A stretch of DNA of 64,000 nucleotides from Thermoanaerobaculia bacterium. GTDB taxonomy: Bacteria; Acidobacteriota; Thermoanaerobaculia; Multivoradales; SZUA-115. Position 1 is the first letter of the stretch. Each line of letters starts with the position of its first letter. Below the pieces are notes generated by a model. The model was not told the origin of the DNA and did no database searches. It saw nothing but the letters and a program-made list of their open reading frames with translations. Below, one piece after another: positions 14,216 to 57,171 of this stretch. The translations under genes were made by a program, and so were the position numbers. The stretch spans positions 9,114-73,113 of the forward strand of contig JBIOYC010000074.1 in assembly GCA_044869955.1 (NCBI GenBank), in the 5' to 3' direction.

Positions 14216-14471
14216 GATTCCTCCTTCGCGGGCTACCGGGCCCGCTCTCATCCGGTATGGCGGGAGGTCTTCGCCAGAGCTCTCAACCGAAGCGTTCCCG
14301 TTGGGCAGCGACGGCACGATTGAGTTGGGGCGGATCGATAATCAGGAACTACATTCTGACGAGATAAGACATCCCCGGGTGTCACGGTTCACTCTTCGGC
14401 CTCACTCTCTTGTGCAGAGCAACCGCTCGAACAGCATTCGCGTCCCCCAGTGGAACGGAAAGGAGCCAGGC

Positions 14472-30894: not shown

Positions 30895-32412
30895 TCAGTC
30901 GTCGGCCGCCGAGGCGTCCTTGATCACGAAGCGGGCCGAGAGGCGCGCCACCTCGGTGGCGAGCCCGGCGAGCTCCACCGAGCGCAGCACTTCGGCGAAG
31001 TCCTTGTAGGCGGCGGGGGCCTCGTCCCGGGGATAGTTGCGGCCGTTGAAGAGGATGTCGCGCTCCTCGAAGGAACGGTCGATCTCCCCTTGGTCGAGCT
31101 CACGGATCGCCCGCTTGCGGCCCAAGGCCCTCCCGGCGCCGTGGTTGACGCTAAAGCAGGAGAGCGCGGCCCCGGGCTCGGCCACCATCACCGAGGAGCC
31201 GGCCTGGGGGTTGCCCGGCAGCAGGATCGGGTGGCCGGTCTGCGCGAACGGAGTGCCGGCGAGCTCGTGGTGCCCGGCTGGGAAGGCGCGGGTGGCGCCC
31301 TTGCGGTGGACCCACATCCGTCGCCCCTCGACCACCTCGAGCCGGGCGATGTTGTGGCTGATGAAGTAGACCAAGGAGGCCTGGACGCCCGGCACGACCT
31401 CCTGGAAGGCCTCGAGCACCAGCGCATTGATCAAGAGGTGGTTGAGCGTGGCGAAGTTGGCGCCGAGAGCCATGTCGTCGAGGTAGTCATCGGCCTCGGC
31501 CGTGCCCAGCGGCGCATAGACCAGCTCGCGATCCCCGCCCGGCAGGGGGATGCTCCAGGTGGCGAACTTCTGCTGCAGAGTCTTGAACTGGCGCGAGGCG
31601 AGCAGGTGCCCGAAGCCCCGCGAGCCGCAGTGGGAGAGGAAGGCCGCCCGACCGTCGGCGAGCCCGAAGGACTCCGCCACCCAGCGGGCGCGGTCGCTGC
31701 CGGCCACCTCGACTACCTCACACTCGCCGAAGTGGTTGCCACCGCCGTAGGAGCCGAGCTGCTGGACCTTCTCGCCGAACTTGCCGAAGGCTGGGTCAGT
31801 ACCCAGCAGGCGCTCGAGACGCACCGCCAGGGCCTCCTGGGTGCCATCGTGGCCGCGGTGGAAGGCGTCCTCGCAGCGCTCGGCCCATTCGGGTGGGATG
31901 CCGAGAGCCTCGCAGACCGCGTCCGAGGCTCCCTCCACCACCAGCCGGCGGCCGAGATCCTCCGCCACCCGCCGTGCCTTCCTCACCGAGCGCTGGCCCT
32001 TGCCGGCGCCGGTGGGCACCCGCTCGCCGATGGCCTCGATCAAGGCCCGACGTACCTTGCGGTCCACCACCGCCTCGGCGGGCAGGTCGAGCTGAAGCAG
32101 GCTCATCGAGCACTTGATGTCGACGCCGACCGGACCGGGGTAGATGTGGCTGGGCGAGGCGACCACGCAGCCGACCGGCGCCCCGTAGCCGACGTGAGCG
32201 TCCGGGTTGAGCACGACCCGGGCGACGCCCGGGGACATCCGGGTGTTCATAGCCTGCTGAAGGCAGCCGGCGTCGAAAGTTCGGCGGATGGCCTCGGTGC
32301 CGATCACGGTGATCGGCGGCAGCGAGCCGCCGGCGACCGGCAAGAGGGCGGTAGCCTCGCCGGTCGGCACCAGCTCAAAGCCGGTGGCTTCAGAAGGGTT
32401 GGCAGAGGTCAT
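30895..32412 (-). CDS. rtcB: RNA-splicing ligase RtcB
   Basis: Collinear with the RtcB family (GVDIKCSM, GGGNHF, HNIA, VNHGAGR metal/GMP-His blocks). The upstream part of the 964-aa track ORF is rejected. Confidence 0.85.
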   Translation of the reverse strand: MTSANPSEATGFELVPTGEATALLPVAGGSLPPITVIGTEAIRRTFDAGCLQQAMNTRMSPGVARVVLNPDAHVGYGAPVGCVVASPSHIYPGPVGVDIKCSMSLLQLDLPAEAVVDRKVRRALIEAIGERVPTGAGKGQRSVRKARRVAEDLGRRLVVEGASDAVCEALGIPPEWAERCEDAFHRGHDGTQEALAVRLERLLGTDPAFGKFGEKVQQLGSYGGGNHFGECEVVEVAGSDRARWVAESFGLADGRAAFLSHCGSRGFGHLLASRQFKTLQQKFATWSIPLPGGDRELVYAPLGTAEADDYLDDMALGANFATLNHLLINALVLEAFQEVVPGVQASLVYFISHNIARLEVVEGRRMWVHRKGATRAFPAGHHELAGTPFAQTGHPILLPGNPQAGSSVMVAEPGAALSCFSVNHGAGRALGRKRAIRELDQGEIDRSFEERDILFNGRNYPRDEAPAAYKDFAEVLRSVELAGLATEVARLSARFVIKDASAADD

Positions 32413-32426
32413 GGGCGGGCGGGAGG

Positions 32427-33596
32427 TTACCCGAAAGCTCGCCTCGCCCGCCAGGCGAGCAGCCGTTCCACCGCCTGGTCGATCGTGTCCTCGTCCTTGC
32501 AAAAGGCGAAGCGCAGCCAGGGGCGGCCGTGCTCTTTGTTGAGGTAGAAGGGGCTCGCCGGGATCGCCGCCACGCCGGCTTCCTCGGGCAGGAGGCGCGA
32601 CAGCTCGAGGTCGTCGTCGAAGCCCAGGGGGCGGATGTCGGCGAGCACGAAGTAGGTGCCTTCCGGTGCCTGGACCCCGAAGCCGGACTCGGCGAGGCCG
32701 CGGCAGAGACGGTCGCGCCGGCTCCGGTAGCGGGCCAGGTAGTCCTCGAAGTAGTCGTCGCCGGCCGCGAGGGCCCTGGCCATGGCCACCTGGAACGGCG
32801 TGGCCTGGCAGAAGGTCACGAACTGGTGGGCTGCTCGCAGGGCCTGCGTCAGCTCTGGGGGGGCGCAGCTCCAGCCGATCTTCCAGCCGGTCAGGCTGAA
32901 GGTCTTGCCCGCCGAGGAGATGGTCACCGTGCGCTCGCGCATCCCGGGCAGGGAGGCGAGGGGCAGGTGCTCCCCCTCGAAGACCAGATGCTCGTAGACC
33001 TCGTCCGAGACGGCGATCAGGTCGTGCCGGCGGCATAGGTCTGCTACCGCTTCCAGCTCGGCGCGGGTGTGCACCCGACCGGTGGGGTTCTGCGGTGTGT
33101 TGAGCAGGATCAGCCGGGTGCGGGGCGTGATCGTCGCCGCCAGCTCGGCGGGGTCGAAGCGGAAGCCCGGCTCGCGGAGGGTGACGGCGCGCACGGTGGC
33201 GCCGGCCATCTCGGCGCCGGCAAGGTAGGAGTCGTAGAAGGGCTCGAAGAGCACCACCTCGTCCCCGGGATCGCAGAAGGCCTGGAAGACGCAGAAGAGG
33301 GCCTCGGTGGCGCCGGCGTAGACGGTGATCTCCCCCTCGGGGTCGAGGTCCTGGCCATAGAAGCGCCTGCGCTGCGCGGAGACCGCCTCGACCAGCTCGG
33401 GCAGCCCGAAGCTGCGGCTGTACTGGTTCCGCCCCGCCCGGATGGCTTCGACGGCGGCTTCCTTGACGAAGTCCGGGCCATCGAAGTTGGGGGCCCCCTG
33501 GCCGAGGTTGATGGCGCCGAAGCGTGTGGCCAGCTGGTTGACGGCGGAGAAGATCGAGGTGCCGAAGCCGGAGACGCGTCGGGCGGCTCGCCTCAC
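32427..33596 (-). CDS. PLP-dependent aminotransferase, class I/II (YbdL/methionine aminotransferase-like)
   Basis: FGTSIFS, INLGQGAPNFDGP, and the PLP-Lys context SSAGKTFSLTGWKIGW. A GTG start at 33596 gives 389 aa. Confidence 0.8.
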   Translation of the reverse strand: MRRAARRVSGFGTSIFSAVNQLATRFGAINLGQGAPNFDGPDFVKEAAVEAIRAGRNQYSRSFGLPELVEAVSAQRRRFYGQDLDPEGEITVYAGATEALFCVFQAFCDPGDEVVLFEPFYDSYLAGAEMAGATVRAVTLREPGFRFDPAELAATITPRTRLILLNTPQNPTGRVHTRAELEAVADLCRRHDLIAVSDEVYEHLVFEGEHLPLASLPGMRERTVTISSAGKTFSLTGWKIGWSCAPPELTQALRAAHQFVTFCQATPFQVAMARALAAGDDYFEDYLARYRSRRDRLCRGLAESGFGVQAPEGTYFVLADIRPLGFDDDLELSRLLPEEAGVAAIPASPFYLNKEHGRPWLRFAFCKDEDTIDQAVERLLAWRARRAFG

Positions 33597-34054
33597 GGGT
33601 AGTCGTCCAGGTCCTGGAAGGGCAGGCCGCAAGGATAGAACAGGTTGAAAACCGGCTGTTCGATCGCCTCGGCGAATCCCAGGAAGAGGGGGCCGTACTT
33701 CTCGATCGGGGAACCGCCGGCCTCGACGGTCTGGTACTCCTCGACGCTGATGCCCATGGCTTCGGCGATCTGTTGGGGGGTCTTGCCACGGCGCTCGCGG
33801 TGCTGGGCGATCAACCGGCCAGCCTGACCGGCCTGGCAGTCGGCGAAGCGCCCACTGTCGGCCAGCAGGCGGGAGGTCGGCGTCTCGAGCGAGATGGCGA
33901 TCTGTGCCAGGCGATAGCCCCAATCCTCGGCCGGCGTGCTGCCGGCTTCGATGTCCTGGTATTCGGCGGCCGGGATGCCCAGCCGGGAAGCGGTCTGGTC
34001 GACTGTCAGACCCTTCTTCTCACGCTCTTTTCTGAGGACTTCGCCCTGTTTCAT
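33593..34054 (-). CDS. Transcriptional regulator with two tandem XRE-type HTH domains
   Basis: Two copies of G(L/K)T..Q.A..(L/M)GI...Y...E.G. GGGAGA SD. Its end overlaps the aminotransferase start by 4 bp. Confidence 0.65.
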   Translation of the reverse strand: MKQGEVLRKEREKKGLTVDQTASRLGIPAAEYQDIEAGSTPAEDWGYRLAQIAISLETPTSRLLADSGRFADCQAGQAGRLIAQHRERRGKTPQQIAEAMGISVEEYQTVEAGGSPIEKYGPLFLGFAEAIEQPVFNLFYPCGLPFQDLDDYP

Positions 34055-34469: not shown

Positions 34470-36179
34470 ATGTCCGAGTCCGAAGTCCAGCACCGCATCC
34501 AAGATACGACTGAGGAGACCCAGGCGGATTCATCGGGTCTCTCTCGACGGCATCTGCTGGGGGGCATCGGCGCCCTGGCTGCCGCCGCCACCGCCGGCTC
34601 GCTGCCGGTGGTGCTCACGCCGACGACGGCCGAGGCCGAGCTCGGCCCGGAACTGGGCAGCAACCGCACCGCCGCCGCCGTGGCCAAGCGGCAACAGCTG
34701 ACGGCCCTGATGCAGGCCGCTGGCTCGCCTGCGCATCCCGACAACGGCGACGAGGCGCTCTACGCCAACCTCATCGGCAACTACTCCAAGGGCCTGCCCC
34801 ACAACGCCATCGGTGAGGTGCGCCCGGCGGCTTACTCGAAGTGGCTGACGGCCCTCAACTCGGGGCTCAACGCGGATTTCGAGGCGATCCCCCTGGGCGG
34901 CGTCACGAAGCTGACCAGCCCACAGTCCGGCCTGGCCTACGACCCCGAGGGCAACGACGGACACCAATACGTCATCCCGCCGGCGCCGGCCTTCGCCAGC
35001 GCCGAAGAGGCGGGCGAGATCGTCGAGAACTACTGGATGGCCCTGCTGCGCGACACCCGCTTCACGGACTACGCGAACAGCGACCTCGCCCAGGCGGCGG
35101 CGGACGAGCTCTCCGGGCTCACTGACTTCCGGGGTCCGACGGAAGGCGGCGTGGTCACCCCGCAGAGCCTCTTCCGCGACGTCCTCCCCGGTTGCACCAC
35201 CGGCCCCTACGTCTCGCAGTTCATGCTCCTGGGCACTCCGTTCGGCGTCGAGTACGTCGAGCGCCGGATGCGCACCCTGGCCCAGGGGAGCGACCACATG
35301 ACCAGCTTCGCCGACTGGCTGGCGGTGCAGAACGGCAACGTCCCGGGCGCTGCGAGGTTCGACTCCACCCGGCGCTACGTCCGTAACGGCCGCGACCTCT
35401 CCGAGTGGGTGCACATCGACGTGCTCTTCCAGGCCTACTTCAACGCCTGCCTGATCCTCGGCACTCCGCCCGACCCGAACAACAAGCCCACCGGCGGCGG
35501 CATCGGCTGCCCGCTCAACTCGGGCAACCCCTACAACGGGTACCAGAAGCAGGCTGCCTTCGCTACTTGGGGGCCCCCGTTCATCAAGGCCACTCTTTGC
35601 GAGGTCGCGTCCCGAGCCCTGAAGGCCCAGTGGTACCAGAAGTGGTTCGTGCACCGCCGCCTGCGTCCCGAGGCGTTCGCCGGATGCGTCCACGTGCACG
35701 TGAGCGGCCTGGCCGACTACCCGATCCACTCGGACGCGCTGGACTCCGAGGCCGCCAGCCGGGTGGCCAGCAAGTATGGCACTTACCTCCTGCCCATGGC
35801 CTTCCCAGAGGGCAGTCCCACCCATCCCGCCTACGGCGCCGGACACGCCACCGTCGCGGGCGCTTGCGTAACCGTCCTCAAGGCCTTTTTCGACGAGAGC
35901 TACGTCATCCCCAACCCGGTGGTCCCCAACGGCAACGGCACCCAACTGCGCCGCTGGGAGGGTGAGCCGCTGACCGTCGGTGGCGAGCTCAACAAGATCG
36001 CCTCCAACGTCGGCACCGGCCGTAACATCGCCGGCGTGCACTGGCGCTCGGACGCCCTCGAATCCTTCCGTCTCGGTGAGGCGGTGGCGATCGCCCTCCT
36101 GCGCGACCACAAGGCCTGCCTCCACGAGGAGGGCAGCTTCACCTTCACCAAGTTCGACGGCACCAGCATCACCATCTAG
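34470..36179 (+). CDS. Tat-exported vanadium-dependent haloperoxidase / PAP2-superfamily enzyme
   Basis: Twin-arginine motif [19 protein letters not shown]. The vanadate-site motifs are [10 protein letters not shown] and GVHWRSD. Confidence 0.7.
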
Positions 36180-42347: not shown

Positions 42348-43994
42348 TCACCGGCCCAATCTCCTCACCTTCTCCTGCGCCGCCTCGTAGTTGGCCGACC
42401 CGGCCGGCACCTTGGCGTAGGCCTGCTTGGCGCGGGTCTCGTCCTTGACCCGCCGCTCGTAGAGGCTGCCGGCGCGGTACCAGGCATCGAAACGGGTGTT
42501 CGGGAAGCGGCTGCCGAGGTCGGTGAGGGTCCTGGCCGCCAGCTCCCAGCGCTTGGCTTCTTCATAGAAGCCGGCGATCTTCCACAGCGCCTGCTCGGCG
42601 GCCGGGTCCTCGGGGTAGCGCTGCACCAGGGTGCGGAGGGTGACCAAGGTGGCGGGAGAGGAGCCGCCCAGCTCTGGATCTCGCTGCCAGATCTTCTTGC
42701 GCTCCTCGATGTCGGCCTTGAGCAGCAGGGCGGGCAGCTCGCTCGGGCTGCCCGGATAGCGCTCCAGCAGCTCGACCAGGCGGCGCCGGGCGCCTTCGGG
42801 GTCGGCCGGTCGACCTTCGAGGAGGGCACGGGCTTGCTGGAGGAGAGCCTCGGCCTCCCCCGCTGGGGTCGAGGCGCCGGTGCCCTGAGCTTCCCGCCTC
42901 GCCGGCAGGCTCGGAGCCGGTGCGGTCGTCTCTGCGGCGGGCTCCGGGCTCGGCGGTGGGGCTGCCGGAGCCTCCTCGGTGACCCGTGGCGCGGTGGCCA
43001 CGGCCGGTGGAGCGGGGGCCGGTCGCTGGACCGCCCGTACCAGGAAGTAGCCGCCGAAGAGCAGGGCCAGCGCGGCGACCAGCGAGCCCACCACCAGCAC
43101 CACGCCCGGCCCCCGCCCGTTGGGCGAGAAGCCAAACAGGCGCCGGGTGGTGCGCGAGATGCCCTGGATCTCACCCAGCAGGCGCAGGTTCAGGTCCGAC
43201 TCCAGCTGCTCGAGGTCGGCGCGGAGCTCGCGCACCGTGCCGTAGCGGTGGCGGGGGTCGGCGGCGATGGTGCGCAGGATCACCGGGTCGAGGTCCGACG
43301 GCAGGTCGGCCACCAGCTGGCTGGGCAGGCTGATTCGGCCGCTCGGCAGCCGCCCGGTGAGCAGCTCGTAGAAGATCGAGCCCAAGGCGTAGAGGTCCGA
43401 GCGGGCGTCCGGCCTGGCGCCGTTGGCGAGCTCCGGGGCGAGATAGCGGATCGCACCGACGTTGACCTGGCCGGTGGTGAGGGTGACGCCCTCCGGGCGC
43501 GTGGGCAGCATGCGGGCGGTGCCGAAGTCCGCCACCTTGACCTCGGTGAGGTCTCGGCTGAGCAGAACGTTGCGGGGCTTGAGGTGGCCGTGGACGAGGC
43601 CCAGTCCGTGAGCGTGCTCGAGGGCCGCAGCCACCGCCCGGACGATGTGGAAGACCCGGTGGAGAGGCTGGCGGCCCTGCCTCATCAGGGCCTCGAGCGA
43701 AGGTCCGTCGACCAGCTCGGTCGCCACCCAGACCTCGTCGCCGGCGGCCTTGTAGTCGAGGATGCGAACCACGTTGGGGTGCTGGAGACGTGCGACGGCG
43801 GCGAGGTCCTTGGCCAGCTCGGCCACGGCGGCGGCGTCCTGGCGGAAGCGCGTGCCGGGCAACTTGACGGCGACCAGGCGCTGGTCGCGACGATCGATCG
43901 CTTTGAGGACGGCGGCGGAACCAGTCTTCGAGAGGGTCGCCGAGACCTCGTAAGGTCCGATCTCGAGCGGCGCGTTAGTTGGCATCGTGCTCAA
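42348..43994 (-). CDS. Membrane-anchored Ser/Thr protein kinase homolog, predicted pseudokinase (HGH replaces HRD), with an extracytoplasmic TPR-like domain
   Basis: A kinase fold with VAVK Lys, DFG and APE present, but the catalytic loop reads VHGHLKPRN with no catalytic Asp. One TM (GVVLVVGSLVAALALLFGGYFLV) and a C-terminal TPR-like region. Confidence 0.7.
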   Translation of the reverse strand: MSTMPTNAPLEIGPYEVSATLSKTGSAAVLKAIDRRDQRLVAVKLPGTRFRQDAAAVAELAKDLAAVARLQHPNVVRILDYKAAGDEVWVATELVDGPSLEALMRQGRQPLHRVFHIVRAVAAALEHAHGLGLVHGHLKPRNVLLSRDLTEVKVADFGTARMLPTRPEGVTLTTGQVNVGAIRYLAPELANGARPDARSDLYALGSIFYELLTGRLPSGRISLPSQLVADLPSDLDPVILRTIAADPRHRYGTVRELRADLEQLESDLNLRLLGEIQGISRTTRRLFGFSPNGRGPGVVLVVGSLVAALALLFGGYFLVRAVQRPAPAPPAVATAPRVTEEAPAAPPPSPEPAAETTAPAPSLPARREAQGTGASTPAGEAEALLQQARALLEGRPADPEGARRRLVELLERYPGSPSELPALLLKADIEERKKIWQRDPELGGSSPATLVTLRTLVQRYPEDPAAEQALWKIAGFYEEAKRWELAARTLTDLGSRFPNTRFDAWYRAGSLYERRVKDETRAKQAYAKVPAGSANYEAAQEKVRRLGR

Positions 43995-45264
43995 AAACTA
44001 TCACGCTGTCTCCGACCTGGATCCGGTCGAGATCCCTCAGCCGAGTCTCGGTCGCCGGCTCGCCGTTCACCCTCGTGCCGAAGCTCGAGCCGAGGTCGCG
44101 CAGCAGGAAAGAGCCGTCCGCGTGGGCCTCGACGGCCAGGTGCTCCTTGCTCGCCTGGCTGTCCGAGAGAGTCAAGGTGCAGGAGCGGGAGCGGCCAACG
44201 ACCGTCGTGCCCTCGCCCAGCAGGACGCTGGCGCCGCGCTCCGGCCCCTCGAGCACGTAGAGCCGCGCCGGGCCCGCGCCTCGCGCGGCTGGCTGGCGGC
44301 CGGTGCGGTCGGTGAGCTCGACAGTGCGCATGGGAAAGGGGATGGTGATGCCGGCGCGCTGGAACGTCTCCCAGATCCGTCCGCGGATCTCACTCCCGAC
44401 CCGTGGCGCGCTCGAGTAGTCCTCGATCCAGACCCGCAGCTCGTATTCGATGGCGCTCTCGGCGAAAGAGAGGTTGAAGACCTCGGGCGTGGGGGTCTCG
44501 AGCACGCCGTCCACCCCCTTGACCGCGTCCAGCAAGGCCCGCCGCACGCGGTAGGGAGGCGTGCGGTAGTGGGCCCCGACCACGATGCGCTCCATGTGCA
44601 GCCGGTGGGGCAAGGCGAAGTTGAGCACCCGCTCGTCGGCGATCTTGGCGTTCGGGATGATGACGTGGTCGTTGTCGCGGGTGCGCAGGTGGGTGGTGCG
44701 CCAGGTGATGGCCACCACCCGCCCCTCCTGGTCGCCGACGCGGATCCAGTCGTTGATGCCGAAGCTGCGTTCCAGGCTGACCACCAGGCCGGCGAAGAAG
44801 TTGGTCAGGATCGGCTGGAGGGCCAGGCCGAGCACCAGAGAGGTCACGGCGCTGGTGGCGAGGATGCCCTTGAAGTCCGCCTTCTCGAAGGCCAGGGGCA
44901 GGGTGACCAGCGCGGCCAGCAGATAGCCCGCCCCGATCGCCACGGCGGGTAACAGAGTGGGAATCGCCACCCCGCGCCGGACCCTGAGGTGAACCTCGAA
45001 GAGGTAAAGGGTGGCCAGGCGGAGGGCCAGCGCGATCGGCACGAAGAGCAGGCACCAGAAGAGCAGCTCGGCGAGGACCGGCTTCTTGGGTGCGCCCTCG
45101 AAGAGCTGGTAGACCTCGAGGGCCACGGCCAGGAAGGCCACGTTCAAGGGCAGGGCGAATTGCCGAACCAGGAGGAAGCGGCGCGAGAGGAGGGCGACCA
45201 GGAGGAAGCCGACGAACAGGGCGCCGAGGCTCGCGGCGAGTGCGGGCAGCAGGGAGGCGAGCAT
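43975..45264 (-). CDS. MscS-family mechanosensitive channel with a C-terminal FHA domain
   Basis: Five TM helices plus the MscS beta-domain, then an FHA domain (VVGRS..C...L.D...S..H, GS.NGT.VNG). Its 3' end overlaps the pseudokinase start by 20 bp. Confidence 0.75.
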   Translation of the reverse strand: MLASLLPALAASLGALFVGFLLVALLSRRFLLVRQFALPLNVAFLAVALEVYQLFEGAPKKPVLAELLFWCLLFVPIALALRLATLYLFEVHLRVRRGVAIPTLLPAVAIGAGYLLAALVTLPLAFEKADFKGILATSAVTSLVLGLALQPILTNFFAGLVVSLERSFGINDWIRVGDQEGRVVAITWRTTHLRTRDNDHVIIPNAKIADERVLNFALPHRLHMERIVVGAHYRTPPYRVRRALLDAVKGVDGVLETPTPEVFNLSFAESAIEYELRVWIEDYSSAPRVGSEIRGRIWETFQRAGITIPFPMRTVELTDRTGRQPAARGAGPARLYVLEGPERGASVLLGEGTTVVGRSRSCTLTLSDSQASKEHLAVEAHADGSFLLRDLGSSFGTRVNGEPATETRLRDLDRIQVGDSVIVFEHDAN

Positions 45265-45347: not shown

Positions 45348-48038
45348 CTACTCCCGCACCACCCGGAAACCCCGGTAGGCCGGCGCGGCGTCGCCCGAGC
45401 CCTTGGGAGCGCGCGGCTGGTCGGCGCTGGGGCCCAGGAGCTTGGCGCTGCCATCCTCGGCGAGGACCCACTCGGCGGCGTTGCCACCGAGGTCGAAGAG
45501 GGGCTCGGTGGTGCCCAGGGCGTCGAAGCGGCCGACCTCGGCGAGCAGGGGACCCTCGCCACCGAGGGCCGCGGCGGCGTTGCGGAGAGCCTCGGCCTCC
45601 TCGGGGTTGGGAGCGAACCCAGCCCAGTGGTCGAGGGTGTTCCCCAAGGTGCCAGCCGACTTGCGCAAGGCGGCCACCTCGGCCTCGCGGGGCAGCCGGT
45701 AGCGCTCGCCCGTCCTCATCGAGAGCCACTCGCAGTAGGCCCGGGCCTGCTCGAAGAGGATGCCTGTGGCCGGGTAGTTCGCCCTCGCGGCTGGCACCGG
45801 GTAGGTTGGATCGAACGTGGCGTACTGCGCGCGGGTGACCTCGAAGCGGCCGAGGGTCAACCCCTCGTGGGCCACCACCTCGGGGACCAGGACTCCCGCC
45901 ACCAGTCGCCCCAGCCGGCCATCGCTGGCGACGGAGCGGGCCCGCTCGAGGGCCCGGCCGAGGGGGGAAGTCGGCGCGAGCGCCGCTGGTTCCGGCGGGA
46001 CCTTGGTGAAGAGGTAGCGGTCGAGCCAGGCGAGCTCTTCCTCGACCTTGCGCCGCTGGTGGACGTAGCGGCCGAGACCGTGAGGCTCGCCGGGAAAGAG
46101 CACCAGCCGCACGGTGCGTCCGGCTTGCTGCAGGGCCCGGTAGAGGGACCAGCTCTGGCTGGGGGGGACGTTGCGGTCCTCGGTGCCGGTAAAGACGATC
46201 GTCGGCGTGGTCACCTCGGGCAAGCGGAAGAAGGGGCTCTTGTCGACATAGCGCTGGGGGTCCTCGAGCGGCGAGGCTCCGAAGTAGAGCTGGTCGAAGG
46301 CGGCGCCGAAGTCGACGTTGCCCCAGTCGCTGATCCACTCCACGTCCGCGGCGCCGATCGAGGCTGCCTTGTAGCGGTGGGTGCGGGTGATCAACTCGGC
46401 CGAGAGAATGCCGCCGTTCGACCAGCCGGTGGTGGCCAGGCGCTCGGGGTCGACCAGGCCACGGGCGATCAGAGCGTTCACCCCGGCTTCGAGGTCGGGG
46501 ATCTCGAGCTCGTAGTACTTGCCGCCTGTGATCGACTCCACCCACTCGAGACCGTAGTTGCTGCTGCCGTGGTAGTTGACCTCGAGCACGAAGGCGCCCC
46601 GGGAGAGCCACAGGGGCAGGGGCTTACTGACCCGGAAGGTCCACTGGTCGAGGTCGGCCCCGGCCGGGCCGCCATGGATGGCGAGGATGAGCGGCCGGCG
46701 CTCGCCCTCGCGCCAGTCGAAGGGGTAGCGCAGGATCCCCTCTACCTCGTCGCCTCGGGCGCCGCGGAAGCGCATCACCGCGCTCTTGGGCCGCGGCTTG
46801 CCGGCCCAGCCGGGGTTGGGGTGGATCGTCGGCTCCGAGGCCACGAGACGCGTCCCCTCGAGCCGAGCGCGCATCCAGACCGGAGGGTCCGAGGGCGTTG
46901 AGTGCTCGTAGAGGATGCGCTGGCCGTCGCGGCTCGCGACCCAATGGAAGACGTGGCCGGCGTGCTCGCCTTCGAGAGCGGAGCGCCGGTGGCTCGACCC
47001 GTTTCGCACGAAGCGGGCAGGGCGGTGGCGGACGCCGTCGGCGAGGAGGGCCAGGAAGCCGTCCGGAGTGGCGGTGAGGGAGCCGACCTCGCCCAGCCCA
47101 CGCGCCCAGCCAAGATCGACCTTCTGCTGGCGCCCGCTCACCACGTCGTAGTGGTAGACCTCGCTGATCGTGGCCTGGAGGTAGACGGGGTGGCTCGCAC
47201 GCTCGGCGGCGAAGTAGAAGCCCTGGCTGGCCGGTTGCCAGGCGACGTGGGAGGGGAACAGTCGGCTGCCCTCGAGGAGCCGTCGGGACTCGCCGGTCCC
47301 GAGGTCGGTCAACCAGGTGGAAGGTGCCAGCCGATTGTCGTAGCCGAAGGCGAGGCTCTGCTGGCGGCGGGTCACGGCCCAACGGCCGTTGGGCGAGACG
47401 GCGAGCAGGTCGATCCAGTCCCGGTTGTCGGTCAGCCGGGTGATCTCTCCCGACTCCAGGGCCAGGCGGAAGAGGCGGGTGGGAGGGGTGAGCGGATCCT
47501 CGACGACGATCGAGGTGTCCTTGGCCTTCTCGGTCTCGAGCTCCAGGCGCGTTGGCTCCTCCGGAGCCACGAGGACGACGTGCCCATCGTCCTGCCAGGC
47601 GAAGGTGGCCAGGGGCCGGGCCAGCGAGGTCACCGGCCAGGGCTCGCCGCCACCGAGGTCGAGCAGGAAGAGCTGGCTCGGCGCGAGCTTCTCGTCAGCT
47701 GCCTTCTCGCCGCGCCGGGGCCGATCCGAGAGGAAAGCTAGGCGGCGGCCGTCGGGAGAGAAGCGGGGGGAGCCGTGGTGGTCGGCGCCGCGGGTCAGGG
47801 CGAGCTCGCGGCCGTCGTCGAGCGAGGTCAGGAAGAGGTTGGAGGCGACGGTTCCCTTCTCCTTGTCCATCACCCGCTTGACCCACACTGCGCTACGTCC
47901 GTCCGGGGCGATCTCGACCTCCTGCACCGTCTCCTGGAGCAGCAGGTCGTCGACCGTCCACTCGCTGCTGCCGGCGACGGCGGGCTGGTTGACGCAGAGG
48001 GCGAGGAGAAGAGTCAAGGCCGAGACTGGCGAGCGCAT
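45348..48038 (-). CDS. Secreted tri-domain protein: TolB-like beta-propeller, S9 prolyl-oligopeptidase-family alpha/beta hydrolase, and a C-terminal FGE-sulfatase (SUMF1-like) domain
   Basis: Signal peptide. PD40-like repeats (SPRFSPDGRRLAFLSDR). S9 nucleophile GWSNGG. C-terminal GNAAEWV and YRGFRVVRE are typical of formylglycine-generating-enzyme domains. Confidence 0.7.
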   Translation of the reverse strand: MRSPVSALTLLLALCVNQPAVAGSSEWTVDDLLLQETVQEVEIAPDGRSAVWVKRVMDKEKGTVASNLFLTSLDDGRELALTRGADHHGSPRFSPDGRRLAFLSDRPRRGEKAADEKLAPSQLFLLDLGGGEPWPVTSLARPLATFAWQDDGHVVLVAPEEPTRLELETEKAKDTSIVVEDPLTPPTRLFRLALESGEITRLTDNRDWIDLLAVSPNGRWAVTRRQQSLAFGYDNRLAPSTWLTDLGTGESRRLLEGSRLFPSHVAWQPASQGFYFAAERASHPVYLQATISEVYHYDVVSGRQQKVDLGWARGLGEVGSLTATPDGFLALLADGVRHRPARFVRNGSSHRRSALEGEHAGHVFHWVASRDGQRILYEHSTPSDPPVWMRARLEGTRLVASEPTIHPNPGWAGKPRPKSAVMRFRGARGDEVEGILRYPFDWREGERRPLILAIHGGPAGADLDQWTFRVSKPLPLWLSRGAFVLEVNYHGSSNYGLEWVESITGGKYYELEIPDLEAGVNALIARGLVDPERLATTGWSNGGILSAELITRTHRYKAASIGAADVEWISDWGNVDFGAAFDQLYFGASPLEDPQRYVDKSPFFRLPEVTTPTIVFTGTEDRNVPPSQSWSLYRALQQAGRTVRLVLFPGEPHGLGRYVHQRRKVEEELAWLDRYLFTKVPPEPAALAPTSPLGRALERARSVASDGRLGRLVAGVLVPEVVAHEGLTLGRFEVTRAQYATFDPTYPVPAARANYPATGILFEQARAYCEWLSMRTGERYRLPREAEVAALRKSAGTLGNTLDHWAGFAPNPEEAEALRNAAAALGGEGPLLAEVGRFDALGTTEPLFDLGGNAAEWVLAEDGSAKLLGPSADQPRAPKGSGDAAPAYRGFRVVRE

Positions 48039-48109: not shown

Positions 48110-49477
48110 GTGCCCAACAGAAGGGGGAGAATGAGCGAGATCACGAGCAGTGAGGGTGCCCGCCCCGAGAGCGAGCGGGCCGGCTGGTCCAGCTTCGGCC
48201 TGATGTGGATCGGCCAGTTCGTGTCCCTGGTCGGCTCGCGCATTACCGCCTTCGCCTTCGGCGTCTTCGTCTTCGAGCAGACCAACTCGGCCTCGGCCTA
48301 CACGGTGATCCTGCTGCTCGCCGGCCTGCCGGGCCTGCTGCTGGCGCCCTTCGCCGGCGCCCTGGTGGACCGCTTCGACCGCCGGCTGGTGATGCTCGTC
48401 TCGGATGTCGCCTCGGCGGTGGCCAGCCTGCTGATGGTCCTGGTGCTGGCGTGGTCCGGGGGGCAGCTGTCGACCGGCTACGTGTACGCCTACGTGGCCT
48501 TCGGCGCCCTGCTCCAGGCGTTCCTCTGGCCGGCCTACATGTCTTCGACCACCCTGCTGATGCCCAAGCGCCACCTCGCCCGGGCGAGCGGCCTGATGCA
48601 GCTCGGCATGGCTTCGGCCGCGGTGCTCGCGCCTCTTCCTGCCCCCTGGCTCCTTTCCTCGGTGGGGGTGATGGGCATCATCTGGATCGACTTCGTGTCC
48701 TTCCTGCTCGCGGCCCTTTCGCTGCTGCGGGTGCGCATCCCGCGGCCCACGGCCAAGACGCCGCCGGCCGGGGGAGGCGGGCGAGCCAGCCTGACGCAGG
48801 ACATCGCCCTCGGTTGGCGCTTCATCCGGGAGCGACCGGGGCTGATGATCCTGCTCTGGTACTTCGCCATGATCAACCTGGTCTTCACCATGGGCTCGGC
48901 CCTGGTGACGCCGATGGTGCTCTCCTTCGCTTCCCGCGAGACCCTCAGCATGGTTTCCGCCACGGGCTCGGCCGGTTTTCTGGTGGGCAGCCTGGTGGCC
49001 GCCGCGACCGGCGGCCCCAGGCGGCGTGTGATGACCGTGCTCTCGTTCGGGTTGCTGCTCGGCGTCGCCTTCCTGCTGGCGGGCATCAAACCCTGGCCGG
49101 GGCTGATCGCGGCGGCTCTTTTCCTCGGGCTCTTCGGCGTGCCCCTGGTCAATACCTCGAGCCAGGCGGTGTGGCAGGTAAAGGTGCCAGCCGAGTTGCA
49201 GGGGCGGATCTTCGCCGTGCGGCGGATGATCGCCCAGTTCACCATCCCGATCGGCCAGCTCTCGGCGGGACCTCTCGCGGACTACGTGTTCCGGCCCCTC
49301 TTGGTCGAGGGAGGGCCCCTCGCCGGCACGGTCGGCAAGGTGGTCGGGGTCGGGCCGGGGCGAGGCATCGCCCTGATCTACCTGGCGCTTGCGGTCTTCC
49401 CCGTCGCGATCTCGGTCTGGGGCTTCTTCCATCCCCGCCTGCGCACTTTGGAGGAGGAGCTGCCAGACGCGGTCTGA
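48110..49477 (+). CDS. MFS transporter (EntS/macrolide-efflux-like)
   Basis: 12 TM helices, a DRFDRR-type loop after TM2, and a C-terminal QGRIFAVRRM motif. Confidence 0.8.
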   Translation: MPNRRGRMSEITSSEGARPESERAGWSSFGLMWIGQFVSLVGSRITAFAFGVFVFEQTNSASAYTVILLLAGLPGLLLAPFAGALVDRFDRRLVMLVSDVASAVASLLMVLVLAWSGGQLSTGYVYAYVAFGALLQAFLWPAYMSSTTLLMPKRHLARASGLMQLGMASAAVLAPLPAPWLLSSVGVMGIIWIDFVSFLLAALSLLRVRIPRPTAKTPPAGGGGRASLTQDIALGWRFIRERPGLMILLWYFAMINLVFTMGSALVTPMVLSFASRETLSMVSATGSAGFLVGSLVAAATGGPRRRVMTVLSFGLLLGVAFLLAGIKPWPGLIAAALFLGLFGVPLVNTSSQAVWQVKVPAELQGRIFAVRRMIAQFTIPIGQLSAGPLADYVFRPLLVEGGPLAGTVGKVVGVGPGRGIALIYLALAVFPVAISVWGFFHPRLRTLEEELPDAV

Positions 49478-53868: not shown

Positions 53869-56800
53869 CTACTTCAAGCGCAGGCGCTGCCAGCCCCCAT
53901 CCCCGCGCTGGCCGTTGGGGTTTTCGACGCGCACGTAATGCCAGTTCCAGTTGGCGGCGTCGAAGGCGAGGGCCGGGTCGAGAGGGACTTCCTGGAAGAG
54001 GAAGCCGTTGTCGGTGAAGGCGGCTGACACTGAAGGAGCGAAGGGACCCCCCAGGATCAGCCGCAGGTACTCGCGGGGGTCGAGCTCGGCGGCGGTCTCC
54101 CAGATCGGCCGGCCGGTGACAGGGTCGACGTCCCCGGTGGGATGGATCGGCAACGACATCGAGCGCAGTAGCACCTGCCCCGGCTGATTGGGCCGCTTGG
54201 TCAGGTCCGGTGGCGTGACGGCGGCGGGGTCGTCGTGGCTGAAGAGCACCAGCCTCGCCCCCGGTAAGATGCCGTTCGCGGCCACCCGTAAACGTCGCGG
54301 CGCCTCCCAACGAACCGCCGTGCCGAAAGCGCTCTCACCCGCCGGGGCGCTCGCTACCACGCCGGCCTGGAACAGGCGGACGGTGTGGGAGAAGAAGCCG
54401 CCGTGCTGGTTGTCGGCCGGATCCTGCCAGTTGAGGGTCATCTTCGGCACGGTGGCGTAGGCCGTGTTCGTGGCGATGGGCTGGAGCACCACGCCACTCG
54501 GGGCGCCCGGAGCGCTGGGTGAGGGTTGCCCGCTTGGCGCTGCCACTCGGCGCTCGCTGCCAAGCGGCGTCACCACCAACACCAGCCGATCGTTGGTCGA
54601 GCCCAGCAAGCTGGTCAGCTGGACGCGGGTCAGGCTCGCTCCCGGGGGCTCTTCGACAAAGAGGCTGGCACCTGGGTCGAACCAGAAGCCGCGGTCGGTG
54701 GCGCCCAGGTGGGCCTGCACGGCCAGCCCGTTGTTGGCCTTGCGCGTCTGGTCCTCGGCGAGGCCGAAGGCCGTGGTCGTCAGGGGATCGGCCAGGTTCG
54801 CCAGGTCCACGGTGTAGGCGATCCCCACCAGCGGGCCGACACCCCAGTCGAGCTCGTGGATGAACTGGTTGAGCTGTTGGAGGGTCGGGCAGAAGGGCAG
54901 GCCGGGCGGACAGAGAACGCCGCCGAAGAAATGACGGTCGAAGGCGTTGATCGTCGAGGTGCGGTTGAAGTCGGTGTTGGTCTGGAGGGGGTCCTTCAGG
55001 ATGAAGCCGGTGTGGAAGAGGCCCTCGAGCCCGGTGATCGGCGCGCCGTCCGGATCGACGGTGCCGGCGCGGGTCAGGCGAGCCTCCTTCTGGAACAGGC
55101 CGCGCAGGGCGGCCGTCTCGATCGGCTGGGTGGCGAGCTCCTCGGCATGATCGGCGGGATTGGTGCCGCCCACACGCTCGGTGATCTTGTTGTTGCTTCC
55201 CTCCGGCAAGGCATGACAGTGCGCGCAGGACATCAGCAGGTCGGACTGGATCAGGTGGTAGATGGTGAGGCCGGCCTGGGCGCCGGTGGGCAGGGGCGGC
55301 GGGAAGGTCTCGTCGACGAAGGGCTCGCCCGAGAACACCCGGCCCAGGGGCTGGCGGGGGTTGGGCGGATAGTTGACCGAGTTGATGAACTCCCGGAAGC
55401 CCTCCATCTCGTCGTCGGTGATCCCGGTTCCGGCGAGCAGGCTGACGAAGGCAGGCTTGAACTGGGTGAAGTCCTCGCGGTCGCCCCGCCAGTGGTAGGG
55501 GGCGTTGGTGAACAGGTCTTGGATCTCCGGCCCCACGTCGAAGTTGAGCAGTCCCTGGAGGGACTGCGTAACCATGTGCTCCTTGTCGGCCGGCCAGAAG
55601 CTCGGCATCAGCAGGCTGTCCTTGAGCTGGGGATCGATCGGCACCTGCACGCCGTCGCCCAGGTCCCAGGCGAGGCCGTCGGTGCGGCCGTCGATGTGGC
55701 AGCTCGAGCAGGAGTTGAAGCCGTTGCCGTGCTCGGCCGAGTAGAGGAAGGTGCGGCCAGCCTTGATGTGATCGGGAGTGGGGTCGTGCCGGAGGGCGAA
55801 CTGGCCGACCGAGGTCTCGGTCACCGGGTTGAGGATGGTCACCGAATTGTCGAGGCGATTGAGCACGTAGAGCCGCGGCCCGGGGTCGTTGGGGTTGCCG
55901 GCATCGGGCCCCTTGATCACCAGGCCGCGGGGCCCGGCGACCGGGCTCACGGAACCAGGGACCGGGGCCATGGCGATCCGCCGGAGGAGCCAGGAGTCGG
56001 CGGAGGAGGACCAGTCGGGCTCGATCACTCCGACCCGGTCGCTGCTCAGGGCGGTGAAGAACACCTTGAGCGGCCCGCTGGAGCCCCGGTAGGTGGCCAC
56101 TCCGGTGAGCTGGGCGAGGGCCTTGGTCTTGGGTACCGGCTGCATCGCCGGCAGCAGCGCCGCCTTGTGGGCCACGAAGCTGCCGAAGACCTCGGTGCCC
56201 GGCGCCACCAGAGGCTGGAGGGCGGGCTCGAGGTTGACGTCCCGGACCTTGAACGTGGGCGTGCCGGAGCACAGCCCACGCACCATCGTGAAGGTGCTCT
56301 TGACGAAGCCGGTCGGCGCGGCGGCCACCACCGCCTCGTCGCGCAAGGTGGTGTTCAAAGCCTCACCGCCGACGATGAAGAGGTCGTCTCCGGGCCCCCA
56401 GGTCATGTGGAAGTTGGCCGAATTGGGCAGGGCGAGGTCGGCGGCTGCACCGCCGGCCGTGGGCAGACTGTAGAGATCGAAGTCGAAGTGCTGCGTGTTG
56501 CCGCCCTTCTCGCCGAGCAGGAAGAGCTTGCCGCAGTGAACGTCGACGTCGCGGGGAGACTTGAGGGCGATGAGGTCGTTCTGCCCGTCCTGGTCGATGT
56601 CTCCCTTGGGCACGGTGGCATCGAAGAGGAACGCGCCCGGGATGATCGGCTGCAAGGTCAAGGCATCCCGCCAGCCGAGGGCGTCCTGGTCGCGATGCGC
56701 CAGGAAGAGGGAGTGACGCAGCACCGTGCCGCCAGCGCCGTCGTCCTCCTCGAAGGGATGGTAGGCGAGGGAGACCGGCTCGTCGCCCACCCAGTCGGTG

Positions 56801-57171
56801 CGCTCGACCGTCGCCACAACACCGGCCGTGTCGCCCGGGTCCAGGCGGATGATGGTCACCGAGTCTGACAGCGCGTTGGTGACGTAGAGCCGCGACAGCT
56901 GGGGCACCCAAAGCAGGGAGTTGGGCTCCAGGCCGGTGCGTACGCGAGCGATGAAGCGGGAGCCGATCGGTAGGGTCTCCTCGGTGTGGTAGAGCTCGAC
57001 CGAGTTGTCCGGGGTGTTGACCACCGCCAGGAACTGCCTGCCTCCGACCGAGACGATCGCCAGGGGATCGACCTGTACGGTCTCGGTGTTGAAGTAGTCG
57101 GTCCGGCCCTGGGCCAGCAAGGCCGGGGCCCAGAGCAGGGCGAAGAACCACAGCCAGCGCTTTGCTCTCAT
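53869..57171 (-). CDS. Large secreted protein: YVTN-type beta-propeller repeats fused to a di-heme cytochrome c peroxidase (CCP/MauG-like) domain
   Basis: Signal peptide. LYVTNALSDSVTI and LYVLNRLDNSVTIL are YVTN repeats. Two CxxCH heme sites (CSSCH, CAHCH). GGAGG SD. Confidence 0.7.
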   Translation of the reverse strand: MRAKRWLWFFALLWAPALLAQGRTDYFNTETVQVDPLAIVSVGGRQFLAVVNTPDNSVELYHTEETLPIGSRFIARVRTGLEPNSLLWVPQLSRLYVTNALSDSVTIIRLDPGDTAGVVATVERTDWVGDEPVSLAYHPFEEDDGAGGTVLRHSLFLAHRDQDALGWRDALTLQPIIPGAFLFDATVPKGDIDQDGQNDLIALKSPRDVDVHCGKLFLLGEKGGNTQHFDFDLYSLPTAGGAAADLALPNSANFHMTWGPGDDLFIVGGEALNTTLRDEAVVAAAPTGFVKSTFTMVRGLCSGTPTFKVRDVNLEPALQPLVAPGTEVFGSFVAHKAALLPAMQPVPKTKALAQLTGVATYRGSSGPLKVFFTALSSDRVGVIEPDWSSSADSWLLRRIAMAPVPGSVSPVAGPRGLVIKGPDAGNPNDPGPRLYVLNRLDNSVTILNPVTETSVGQFALRHDPTPDHIKAGRTFLYSAEHGNGFNSCSSCHIDGRTDGLAWDLGDGVQVPIDPQLKDSLLMPSFWPADKEHMVTQSLQGLLNFDVGPEIQDLFTNAPYHWRGDREDFTQFKPAFVSLLAGTGITDDEMEGFREFINSVNYPPNPRQPLGRVFSGEPFVDETFPPPLPTGAQAGLTIYHLIQSDLLMSCAHCHALPEGSNNKITERVGGTNPADHAEELATQPIETAALRGLFQKEARLTRAGTVDPDGAPITGLEGLFHTGFILKDPLQTNTDFNRTSTINAFDRHFFGGVLCPPGLPFCPTLQQLNQFIHELDWGVGPLVGIAYTVDLANLADPLTTTAFGLAEDQTRKANNGLAVQAHLGATDRGFWFDPGASLFVEEPPGASLTRVQLTSLLGSTNDRLVLVVTPLGSERRVAAPSGQPSPSAPGAPSGVVLQPIATNTAYATVPKMTLNWQDPADNQHGGFFSHTVRLFQAGVVASAPAGESAFGTAVRWEAPRRLRVAANGILPGARLVLFSHDDPAAVTPPDLTKRPNQPGQVLLRSMSLPIHPTGDVDPVTGRPIWETAAELDPREYLRLILGGPFAPSVSAAFTDNGFLFQEVPLDPALAFDAANWNWHYVRVENPNGQRGDGGWQRLRLK

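Follow-up and report, generated by a model that had tools for sequence, protein, structure and literature searches.

The closest solved relatives of the peptidase described here are the bacterial S9 carboxypeptidases and S9C enzymes (8WT1, 7EP9 and the 5YZM series), the acylaminoacyl peptidase (AAP) of Pyrococcus horikoshii (4HXE/4HXG) and the mammalian AAP (7PX8/9GNE). These enzymes combine a 7-bladed propeller with an alpha/beta-hydrolase carrying a Ser-Asp-His triad whose serine lies in GxSxGG, are 600-690 aa long and stop directly after the hydrolase domain. S9 carboxypeptidases and S9C enzymes are reported to be oligomers in which multimerisation selects the substrate (PMC9214879; Yadav et al. 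2019).

The second system relevant to this locus is the formylglycine-generating enzyme (FGE), which requires copper bound by its two active-site cysteines, human Cys336 and Cys341 (PMC4505483, PMC6676471). The FGE-sulfatase fold superfamily also includes proteins that are not FGEs, i.e., ToxD (7SPQ), PvdO (5HHA), CalU17 (7MSY), CarF (5AOH), PorK/GldK (9MZU) and TvpA (2Y3C), with 260-320 aa each. The first-pass annotation of this DNA stated that FGE domains are usually stand-alone or fused to kinases. Kinase families do carry FGE-sulfatase fusions (bioRxiv 10.1101/2025.01.12.632604), with the Ser/Thr-kinase-FGE-sulfatase protein P0224 as an example, but this picture is too narrow, as 33 bacterial metacaspases (PMC3501461) join such a domain to a caspase-type peptidase. 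Like the protein described here, the metacaspase/orthocaspase and Ser/Thr-kinase fusions have the FGE-sulfatase-fold domain C-terminal to the catalytic domain of another class. However, there the partner is a clan CD cysteine peptidase or a kinase, here a clan SC serine peptidase of family S9, and most of the known fusions are signalling proteins of the cytoplasm or the membrane, whereas the present protein is probably exported. In the literature no description of a PF03781-type domain fused to an S9 peptidase was found, and two domain-architecture surveys of S9 or serine proteases do not mention FGE.

A gene encoding such a fusion lies within the 64-kb window, i.e., the whole stretch of DNA that was analysed. 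Its features are as follows:

45348..48038, minus strand: coding sequence of the S9 peptidase with C-terminal FGE-like domain, 896 aa plus stop, a single open reading frame
47970..48038, minus strand: putative signal peptide, residues 1-23 (MRSPVSALTLLLALCVNQPAVA, followed by G), read from the sequence by eye
46794..47960, minus strand: seven-bladed beta-propeller with PD40-type repeats, residues about 27-415, from PF07676, the model and superposition
45999..46793, minus strand: S9 alpha/beta-hydrolase catalytic domain, residues about 416-680, from PF00326 and phmmer
46419..46421, minus strand: codon of the nucleophile Ser540 (GWS540NGG), codon verified, Ser in 120/120 homologs
46176..46178, minus strand: codon of the catalytic Asp621 (GTED621RNVP), codon verified, invariant in 120/120
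46080..46082, minus strand: codon of the catalytic His653 (PGEPH653GL), codon verified, invariant in 120/120
45894..45998, minus strand: linker with a conserved short helix (S691-P-L ... A-L), residues 681-715, from conservation and the model
45351..45893, minus strand: minimal FGE-sulfatase-fold (C-type-lectin-like) domain without the Cys pair, residues about 716-896

The reading frame starts with ATG, preceded at a distance of 4 nt by the Shine-Dalgarno sequence GGAGGA, and its GC3 of 0.91 is usual for coding sequence here. An internal stop, which would have pointed to a mis-joined pair of reading frames, was looked for and is absent, so that the single uninterrupted 896-aa protein proposed earlier holds. 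An identical protein (P0001) is present in the public databases, and P0002, from a Thermoanaerobaculia MAG, is a syntenic ortholog with 85% identity. Scanning for promoter and terminator consensus sequences gave no match, a scan that is uninformative in a genome of 70% GC, and neither Rfam nor tRNA scans had a hit in the window.

Judged by eye, the N-terminus (MRSPVSALTLLLALCVNQPAVA followed by GS) resembles a signal peptide, with a probable signal-peptidase-I site after AVA that would remove residues 1-23. All homologs examined likewise have a signal-peptide-like N-terminus, in which a basic n-region precedes a hydrophobic h-region, and the mature homologs begin close to a conserved (E)WTVDD motif. 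The same segment is the least confident part of the AlphaFold model (pLDDT 50-61). The family has no conserved lipobox and no other conserved anchor sequence. These family-wide N-termini support the earlier description of the protein as secreted, and it is probably either periplasmic or secreted.

The three domain types that had been proposed were all recovered above their Pfam gathering scores. Peptidase_S9 (PF00326) covers residues 475-676 with an E-value of 1.8e-39 (135.9 bits, cut-off 22.6), PD40 (PF07676) matches at residues 87-110, and PF03781 is located at the C-terminus. The quoted motifs are also present, GWSNGG with the nucleophile at residues 538-543, GNAAEWV at 852-858 and YRGFRVV at 888-894. 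With the triad in the order Ser-Asp-His and the serine in GxSxGG, the protein belongs to peptidase family S9 (clan SC). In phmmer alignments Ser540 falls on the serine of the GxSxGG motif in 8WT1 and 7EP9, Asp621 on the region of the acid residue of 8WT1 and His653 on its 'anHdl' segment.

AlphaFold predicts the full-length protein with confidence (pLDDT 89.4, pTM 0.76). In this model the propeller is built from 28 strands, four to each of its 7 blades, pLDDT values here are mostly above 90, and it superposes on the propellers of 8WT1, 5YZM and 4HXG. Propeller and hydrolase together superpose on solved S9 enzymes with TM-scores of 0.79-0.86 normalised to the target. The best of these is 8WT1, an S9 carboxypeptidase from Geobacillus (TM 0.86 normalised to the target, about 690 columns), and other acylaminoacyl-type S9 enzymes superpose on the full-length model as well. 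8WT1 is also the best sequence match in the PDB (phmmer E-value 1.4e-46), whereby residues 30-318 align to its propeller and residues 422-676 to its hydrolase domain (1e-32). The structural ranking runs from 8WT1 over 7EP9 (Fusobacterium) and the 5YZM series (Deinococcus) to archaeal and mammalian acylaminoacyl peptidases, and the PDB matches by sequence follow the same order. With 8WT1, 7EP9, 5YZM, 4HXE and 7PX8 as top matches in both sequence and structure, the nearest relatives of the protein belong to the S9C/S9 carboxypeptidase subgroup, and the predicted enzyme appears closest to the acylaminoacyl-peptidase/S9-carboxypeptidase group. All curated NCBIfam models scored below their cut-offs (Dpp5 77 versus 900, lasso isopeptidase 89 versus 400).

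The catalytic domain has the highest mean identity to the query in the family (66.8%), compared with 46.8% for the propeller. Identity to the solved S9C enzymes and S9 carboxypeptidases is only 25-26%, and these lack the C-terminal extension of about 215 aa, comprising linker and FGE-like domain, that is present here; the protein described here in addition carries the putative signal peptide. The first-pass annotation had called the protein a tri-domain fusion with a TolB-like propeller. Neither term can be kept. Propeller and hydrolase together are the standard S9 body, as the superposition on 8WT1 makes clear, and the novelty is one domain added to it. The TolB model TIGR02800 reached 21.8 bits (cut-off 343), and what the propeller has in common with TolB is the generic PD40 repeat alone.

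Behind the hydrolase domain follows a linker with a mean identity of 37%, in which Ser691 and Gly710 are nevertheless invariant and P692 and L693 are at least 90% conserved; the model places a helix at about residues 692-700. The domain behind it matches PF03781 FGE-sulfatase at residues 736-863 with 37.6 bits (cut-off 23.3). This match is partial and covers profile positions 72-194 of 255. In three dimensions the domain adopts the fold of the FGE-sulfatase superfamily. The nearest relatives are ToxD, TvpA, PvdO and PorK/GldK, and the family profile gave 1.7e-10 against ToxD, 4e-9 against PvdO and about 1e-9 against PorK/GldK. True FGEs are far more distant, with E-values of about 0.6 for T. 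curvata FGE (5NXL, 6S07) and 0.026 for pFGE.

Aligning the family profile with human FGE by hhalign yields 26 core columns (residues 833-860 to FGE 279-304), which pair D849 with N293, G852 with G296, A854 with A298 and E856 with E300. The FGE segment bearing Cys336 and Cys341 finds no counterpart in the family profile. The entire protein contains two cysteines, C15 and C769, and no cysteine is found downstream of the DLGGNxAEW motif in 104 of 113 homologs. Compared directly with FGE (1Y1E), the segment after GNxxEW is 18 residues shorter and the segment from GGS to GFR 11 residues shorter; the tail mapping of GGSAD versus GGSYMC was done by inspection of the sequences, with no significant alignment behind it. 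The equivalents of Cys336/Cys341 that distinguish FGE (SUMF1) and pFGE (SUMF2) from this family are therefore absent, the active-site loop is shortened, and without a Cu(I)-binding Cys pair the domain is incapable of FGE chemistry. Of the earlier assignment as an FGE (SUMF1) domain the fold superfamily stands and the enzyme identity does not, as the Cys pair is missing and ToxD, PorK and PvdO are much closer. A degenerate domain had already been considered then, and checking the catalytic cysteines bears this out. The C-terminal domain is a member of the FGE fold superfamily but not an FGE, and a PF03781 match of this kind should not be annotated as formylglycine-generating enzyme activity.

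Although reduced in size, at about 180 aa versus 260-320 aa in the non-FGE members of the fold, the domain is well conserved. Its mean identity of 54.7% is above that of the propeller, the family motifs are RFEVTRAQ, NTLDxWAGY-PNPED, DLGGNxAEW, GGSAD and YRGFRVV, and the invariant polar residues are E733, D803, D849, N853, E856, S871 and D873. The DxxGNxxEW core (D849, G852, A854, E856) corresponds to what we take to be a structural Ca2+ site in FGE. From ToxD, PvdO, CalU17, CarF, PorK/GldK and TvpA the domain also differs in two invariant motifs of its own, NTLDxWAGY-PNPED and GGSAD, and in being fused C-terminally to an S9 peptidase. The identity above that of the propeller, together with family-specific invariant motifs, argues for a fixed function and against both a domain in decay and use as a variable binding surface; judged from this conservation, the domain is under purifying selection.

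To what extent the architecture is unusual depends on the measure. No member has been characterised, and in this sense the earlier wording is justified, but the architecture itself is frequent and common in soil Acidobacteriota. The best 120 database matches are all full length, with about 900 aa and the same domains, and for most of them a PF03781 match is precomputed. In species-representative genomes at least 452 loci encode relatives, and every one of the best 80 is full length. Most of these 120 matches and 80 loci belong to Acidobacteriota, some to Gemmatimonadota and a few to other phyla.

As noted before, an MFS_1 gene (48110..49477, plus strand) is transcribed divergently at a distance of 71 bp. 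This neighbour is retained in close Thermoanaerobaculia relatives and missing in other relatives. When the flanking reading frames of 85 loci were clustered, the commonest neighbour family occurred in 17 of them, which speaks against a conserved operon with an MFS exporter or any other partner, and sulfatase genes were absent from the six annotated gene contexts. The gene is a stand-alone gene without a conserved partner.

Taken together, the protein is probably an exported S9C-like exo- or oligopeptidase in which the conserved FGE-fold module serves a non-redox function, either binding or structural. The propeller should limit entry, as it does in other S9 enzymes, so that peptides or unfolded chain ends alone would reach Ser540-Asp621-His653. 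With access restricted in this way an exo- or oligopeptidase is most likely, and we infer an exopeptidase-type specificity. The peptidase would most likely serve the scavenging or turnover of peptides outside the cytoplasm. The trimmed FGE-fold domain of about 180 aa is permanently joined to the C-terminus of the standard S9 body and most likely acts as a non-redox accessory, be it as a binder of some conserved ligand or substrate feature or as a structural or gating element of the peptidase. The analysis establishes the domains, the triad, the fold, the missing Cys pair, the conservation and the distribution, while export, specificity and the role of the C-terminal domain are inferred.

A purely architectural role, in which the domain oligomerises, gates or anchors the enzyme to the envelope and contacts no substrate-related ligand, is less probable, although it overlaps with the favoured explanation and differs just in what the domain contacts. 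It would either replace the tetramer-based screening of related S9 enzymes or resemble a structural ring subunit of the PorK/GldK kind. The reported selection of substrates by multimerisation in S9C enzymes and S9 carboxypeptidases (PMC9214879; Yadav et al. 2019) would fit, and the invariant short linker helix suggests rigid docking on the body. However, the lack of a conserved lipobox or anchoring signal in the family and of a conserved envelope partner gene nearby argues against it.

Also unlikely, and slightly more so, is that the FGE-fold module is a dedicated recognition or catalytic unit for one substrate class, or a gate replacing oligomerisation. Such substrates could be modified, glycan-linked or cell-wall-derived peptides. 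If this were true, the family would be a functionally new S9 subfamily and would provide the first role for a peptidase-fused FGE-fold domain.

We regard as improbable a bifunctional enzyme, in which the FGE-fold domain is catalytic with a non-classical chemistry of the PvdO or ToxD/CalU17 type and shares its substrate with the peptidase. Loss of the Cys pair is no proof of a non-catalytic domain, because some Cys-less FGE-fold proteins have been reported as enzymes, among them PvdO, which NCBIfam names 'dihydropyoverdine dehydrogenase'. The strong conservation with its invariant polar residues would agree with catalysis, as would the nearest relatives ToxD, PvdO, CalU17 and CarF, which belong to biosynthetic pathways. 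However, several of the conserved acidic residues fall in the DxxGNxxEW fold core, presumably a structural Ca2+ site, the copper-binding Cys pair is absent and the domain is trimmed. A sulfoxide synthase of the EgtB/OvoA type is rejected, as Pfam finds no DinB-like domain with an iron-binding His triad and an S9 hydrolase precedes instead; the ovoA_Nterm model scored 18 bits versus a cut-off of 400. Neither a biosynthetic gene cluster nor a conserved partner surrounds the gene. Peptidase-FGE fusions have been speculated to combine two modifications (PMC3501461).

Two further explanations have a negligible chance. In the first, the C-type-lectin-like domain would be a hypervariable ligand-binding domain that a diversity-generating retroelement alters, as with TvpA or Mtd. 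This is ruled out at this locus, since all family members share the C-terminal motifs unchanged and the C-terminal coding DNA has no template repeat anywhere in the 64-kb window, where it gave only chance matches of at most 28 nt and one match of 59 nt at 76% identity (E-value 0.09). The second, an artefact in which a frameshift or a faulty assembly fuses two genes, one for a peptidase and a separate one of the FGE family, is refuted by the continuous frame of uniform coding composition, the confident model of the whole chain and the same full-length architecture in 120/120 best matches and 80/80 best loci from independent assemblies of several phyla.

In soil, Acidobacteriota rank among the most abundant bacteria, and their biochemistry is poorly characterised. 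An exported peptidase family that is conserved in most of their classes probably aids the uptake of peptide nitrogen or the remodelling of the envelope. FGE-fold domains recur in fusions to peptidases and kinases, and the present family, with its many members, good conservation and confident model, is a tractable system in which to study their role.

The peptidase gene is one unbroken reading frame without internal stop, so that the mis-joining of two ORFs considered in the first-pass annotation does not apply. Its third-position GC (0.91) matches that of the other genes of the ~70% GC window, a Shine-Dalgarno sequence (GGAGGA) precedes the ATG by 4 nt, and public data contain a 100% identical protein (P0001, 896 aa). 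The S9, PD40 and FGE-sulfatase domains named at first reading were all recovered by Pfam above their curated thresholds, with FGE-sulfatase (PF03781) at the C-terminus. The quoted motifs were found, and the putative MFS exporter is encoded on the opposite strand as described. Residue numbers are true numbers throughout; Met1 was left out of the family alignment (A1) and of the full-length model, whose positions equal the true residue minus 1.

Gene and domain features of the peptidase
45348..48038, (-) strand: peptidase CDS, 896 codons from ATG, single unbroken ORF
48110..49477, (+) strand: MFS gene, divergent from the peptidase gene, 71 bp apart
Residues 87-110: PD40, one repeat, above the curated Pfam threshold
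Residues 475-676: Peptidase_S9 domain, Pfam E 1.8e-39, above the curated threshold
Residues 538-543: motif GWSNGG
Residues 736-863: FGE-sulfatase domain, Pfam 37.6 bits (cut-off 23.3)
Residues 852-858: motif GNAAEWV
Residues 888-894: motif YRGFRVV

In the full-length AlphaFold model (63 aligned sequences as input; pLDDT 89.4, pTM 0.76) residues ~35 to ~405 contain 28 strands, which form seven four-stranded blades, and the alpha/beta-hydrolase domain follows. Propeller and hydrolase jointly superpose over ~690 columns on known S9 enzymes (Foldseek against the PDB), and therefore represent the canonical S9 body rather than two fused parts; the "tri-domain fusion" of the first-pass annotation has to be dropped. 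Matches include the S9 carboxypeptidase of Geobacillus stearothermophilus (8WT1, target-normalised TM 0.86), the carboxypeptidase of Fusobacterium nucleatum (7EP9), the S9 peptidase of Deinococcus radiodurans (5YZM series), acylaminoacyl peptidases of Pyrococcus horikoshii and mammals, and lasso-peptide isopeptidases. The sequence ranking agrees with the structural one (8WT1, E 1.4e-46 across residues 30-318 and 422-676). The protein thus belongs to peptidase family S9 and is closest to the S9 carboxypeptidases and the acylaminoacyl peptidases, enzymes that trim peptides from their ends. Its triad is Ser540-Asp621-His653; the codons were verified, and all three residues are invariant in 120/120 family members. 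Signal-peptide-like N-termini in all homologs examined are consistent with the proposed secretion; no conserved lipobox was found among these N-termini, and a conserved (E)WTVDD motif stands near the start of the mature proteins. Taken together, the S9 enzyme is intact and looks exported, with a full triad and a seven-bladed propeller. Of the description "TolB-like" only the presence of PD40-type repeats stands, since with 21.8 bits the protein falls far below the cut-off of the TolB equivalog model (343), and TolB identity was rejected. The family carries no specific name, since all curated NCBIfam equivalogs stay below their cut-offs; sources annotate it as "prolyl oligopeptidase family serine peptidase" or "dipeptidyl aminopeptidase/acylaminoacyl peptidase".

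The C-terminal domain is a member of the FGE-sulfatase fold superfamily, yet it is no FGE. The Pfam match is partial (profile positions 72-194 of 255 only), and with ~180 aa, against 255-320 aa elsewhere in the fold, the domain is a trimmed version. It has invariant motifs of its own: RFEVTRAQ, NTLDxWAGY-PNPED, DLGGNxAEW, GGSAD and YRGFRVV.

C-terminal domain compared with fold relatives (values unlabelled)
ToxD: 16.2
TvpA (DGR variable protein of Treponema): 16.0
OvoA: 15.3
CarF: 14.1
PvdO: 14.0
EgtB-IV: 13.9
PorK: 13.3 (32% identity over 145 residues)
pFGE: 13.1
CalU17: 12.9

In sequence comparisons the family profile gives 1.7e-10 for ToxD, ~1e-9 for PorK/GldK, 4e-9 for PvdO and 2e-7 for CalU17, but 0.026 for pFGE and only ~0.6 for the true FGEs 5NXL and 6S07. 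FGE catalysis requires Cu(I) on two cysteines, Cys336 and Cys341 in the human enzyme (PMC4505483, PMC6676471). The peptidase contains only two cysteines, C15 in the signal peptide and C769 in the AYCEWL helix, the latter not conserved in the family; 104/113 homologs have no cysteine downstream of DLGGNxAEW. Aligned to a human FGE fragment (100% identical to 1Y1E, with Cys336/Cys341 at fragment positions 112/117), the family profile covers only the fold core, residues 833-860 against FGE 279-304, pairing D849-L-G-G-N-A-A-E856-W with N293-I-V-G-N-A-W-E300-W. By direct inspection the peptidase is 18 residues shorter than FGE between GNxxEW and "GGS" and 11 residues shorter between "GGS" and "GFR", where it reads GPSADQPRAPKGSGDAAPAYRGFR and the FGE equivalent holds both cysteines. 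The domain is thus degenerate at the copper site, and with the missing cysteine pair and the weak similarity to true FGEs it was rejected as a formylglycine-generating enzyme proper. FGE N293, G296, A298 and E300 presumably form the structural Ca2+ site of the crystal structure; if so, this site would be kept through the invariant D849, G852, A854 and E856. Pfam found no DinB-type iron domain ahead of the C-terminal domain, which excludes an EgtB/OvoA-type reaction and membership. Neither FGE nor EgtB/OvoA chemistry is thus possible for the FGE-fold domain.

Mean identity of the family to the query is 46.8% in the propeller, 66.8% in the hydrolase domain, 37.0% in the linker and 54.7% in the FGE-like domain; the latter is more strongly constrained than the propeller. 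This points to a fixed function and counts against decay and hypervariability. No template-repeat copy of the DNA coding for the domain lies within the window, so that a DGR is excluded at this locus; with the domain conserved, its reading as a DGR target or variable protein was rejected.

The combination was first described as unusual, but in certain phyla it occurs very frequently. The 120 matches listed in a full-length search are all full-length-like (846-1177 aa, 48-85% identity, 93-100% of the query covered), and nearly all carry precomputed PF00326 and PF03781. Among GTDB representatives (one genome per species) at least 452 loci encode relatives. In the best 80 of these, all from metagenome-assembled genomes, the query is covered from about residue 1-26 through 873-895, thus including the C-terminal domain, which excludes an assembly artefact as origin of the fusion. 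Going by record titles, about 61 of the best 80 are Acidobacteriota (including Thermoanaerobaculia, Blastocatellia, Vicinamibacteria, Terriglobia, Bryobacterales/Solibacter, Acidiferrales and Aminicenantes) and 3 Gemmatimonadota; the remainder is scattered over Planctomycetota (Gemmataceae), Chloroflexota, Dormibacterota, Eremiobacterota, Nitrospirales and doubtfully labelled bins. The taxonomic survey proposed at first reading therefore gives mostly Acidobacteriota, some Gemmatimonadota and a few other phyla.

In a search of 1.84 billion representatives, the profile built from the C-terminal domain matched 166 proteins at E<=1e-30, 2886 at E<=1e-10 and 40795 at E<=1e-3. The top matches are ~900-aa proteins with the domain at the extreme C-terminus, short metagenomic fragments of the peptidase family (P0121 comprises the Peptidase_S9 end plus the domain), and giants with 3-12 tandem full-length FGE-sulfatase domains, some with a kinase or PDZ domain, whose high rank comes solely from summed scores. 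By these matches, the domain subtype is essentially confined to the S9 peptidase family. The giants include P0138 (4448 aa, 12 matched stretches), P0145 (1830 aa, 6 full domains), P0185, P0195, P0224 (with a protein kinase) and P0229 (with a PDZ domain).

No gene context is conserved around the peptidase gene, which behaves as an independent unit. The MFS gene accompanies it in the window, and likewise an 85%-identical ortholog (Thermoanaerobaculia MAG) and one 58% relative, and is missing in the other relatives whose contexts were compared. When the flanking ORFs of 85 loci were clustered, the commonest neighbour family occurred in 17/85: a ~235-aa protein directly downstream (e.g., locus L032, 5704..6411 (+)). 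The second, ~250 aa long and carrying a CxxxCxxC radical-SAM-like motif, occurred in 14/85 (e.g., locus L021, 7910..8665 (+)). Both are absent from the window, whose other genes include the following.

11234..14317, (-) strand: 1027-aa subtilase (Peptidase_S8), putative peptidase
26055..27851, (+) strand: 598-aa trypsin-like protein (Trypsin_2), putative peptidase
30895..33789, (-) strand: 964-aa ORF, RtcB RNA-ligase domain at residues 512-957 only
34470..36179, (+) strand: 569-aa ORF, GC3 0.90, no Pfam match at E<=1e-5
42348..43994, (-) strand: Ser/Thr kinase with TPR repeats, start overlapped 20 nt by the end of the channel gene
43975..45264, (-) strand: MscS-type mechanosensitive channel with C-terminal FHA domain, immediately downstream of the peptidase gene
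53869..57171, (-) strand: 1100-aa ORF, GC3 0.91 and coding-like, no Pfam match at E<=1e-5

Together with the S9 peptidase, the two large putative peptidases listed make this a protease-rich region. Channel and kinase genes are also adjacent in two related genomes (L001, L002), which suggests control of the channel via phospho-threonine recognition. The RtcB ORF may have been extended mechanically too far in its N-terminal part (~500 aa), or this part may be an unusual extension of the protein.

FGE-sulfatase domains are known fused to bacterial metacaspases (n=33; PMC3501461) and to Ser/Thr kinase families (bioRxiv 10.1101/2025.01.12.632604); by the metacaspase precedent, pairing a peptidase with this fold is not new in principle. 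The S9 combination appears in automated annotations. The literature searched does not mention it, nor "FGE-sulfatase" and "prolyl oligopeptidase" together; it is likewise missing from a survey covering ~53,000 bacterial S9 proteins and from an older survey of serine proteases, probably owing to its concentration in uncultured Acidobacteriota. The peptidase is real, widespread and uncharacterised, and in principle unsurprising.

As is known for family S9, the propeller would let only peptides or unfolded termini reach the active site, which makes an extracytoplasmic exo- or oligopeptidase, presumably serving peptide scavenging or turnover, the most likely function. The fold serves ligand binding in TvpA and in the substrate-binding half of EgtB and OvoA and structure building in PorK/GldK, and has a putative accessory role in ToxD, PvdO and CalU17; these relatives favour a non-redox accessory role over catalysis of another kind by the domain, which we consider improbable. 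An extracytoplasmic exo- or oligopeptidase whose FGE-fold domain plays a non-redox accessory part is, as a whole, a fairly probable reading; the domain could recognise a conserved ligand or substrate feature, or have a structural or gating role.
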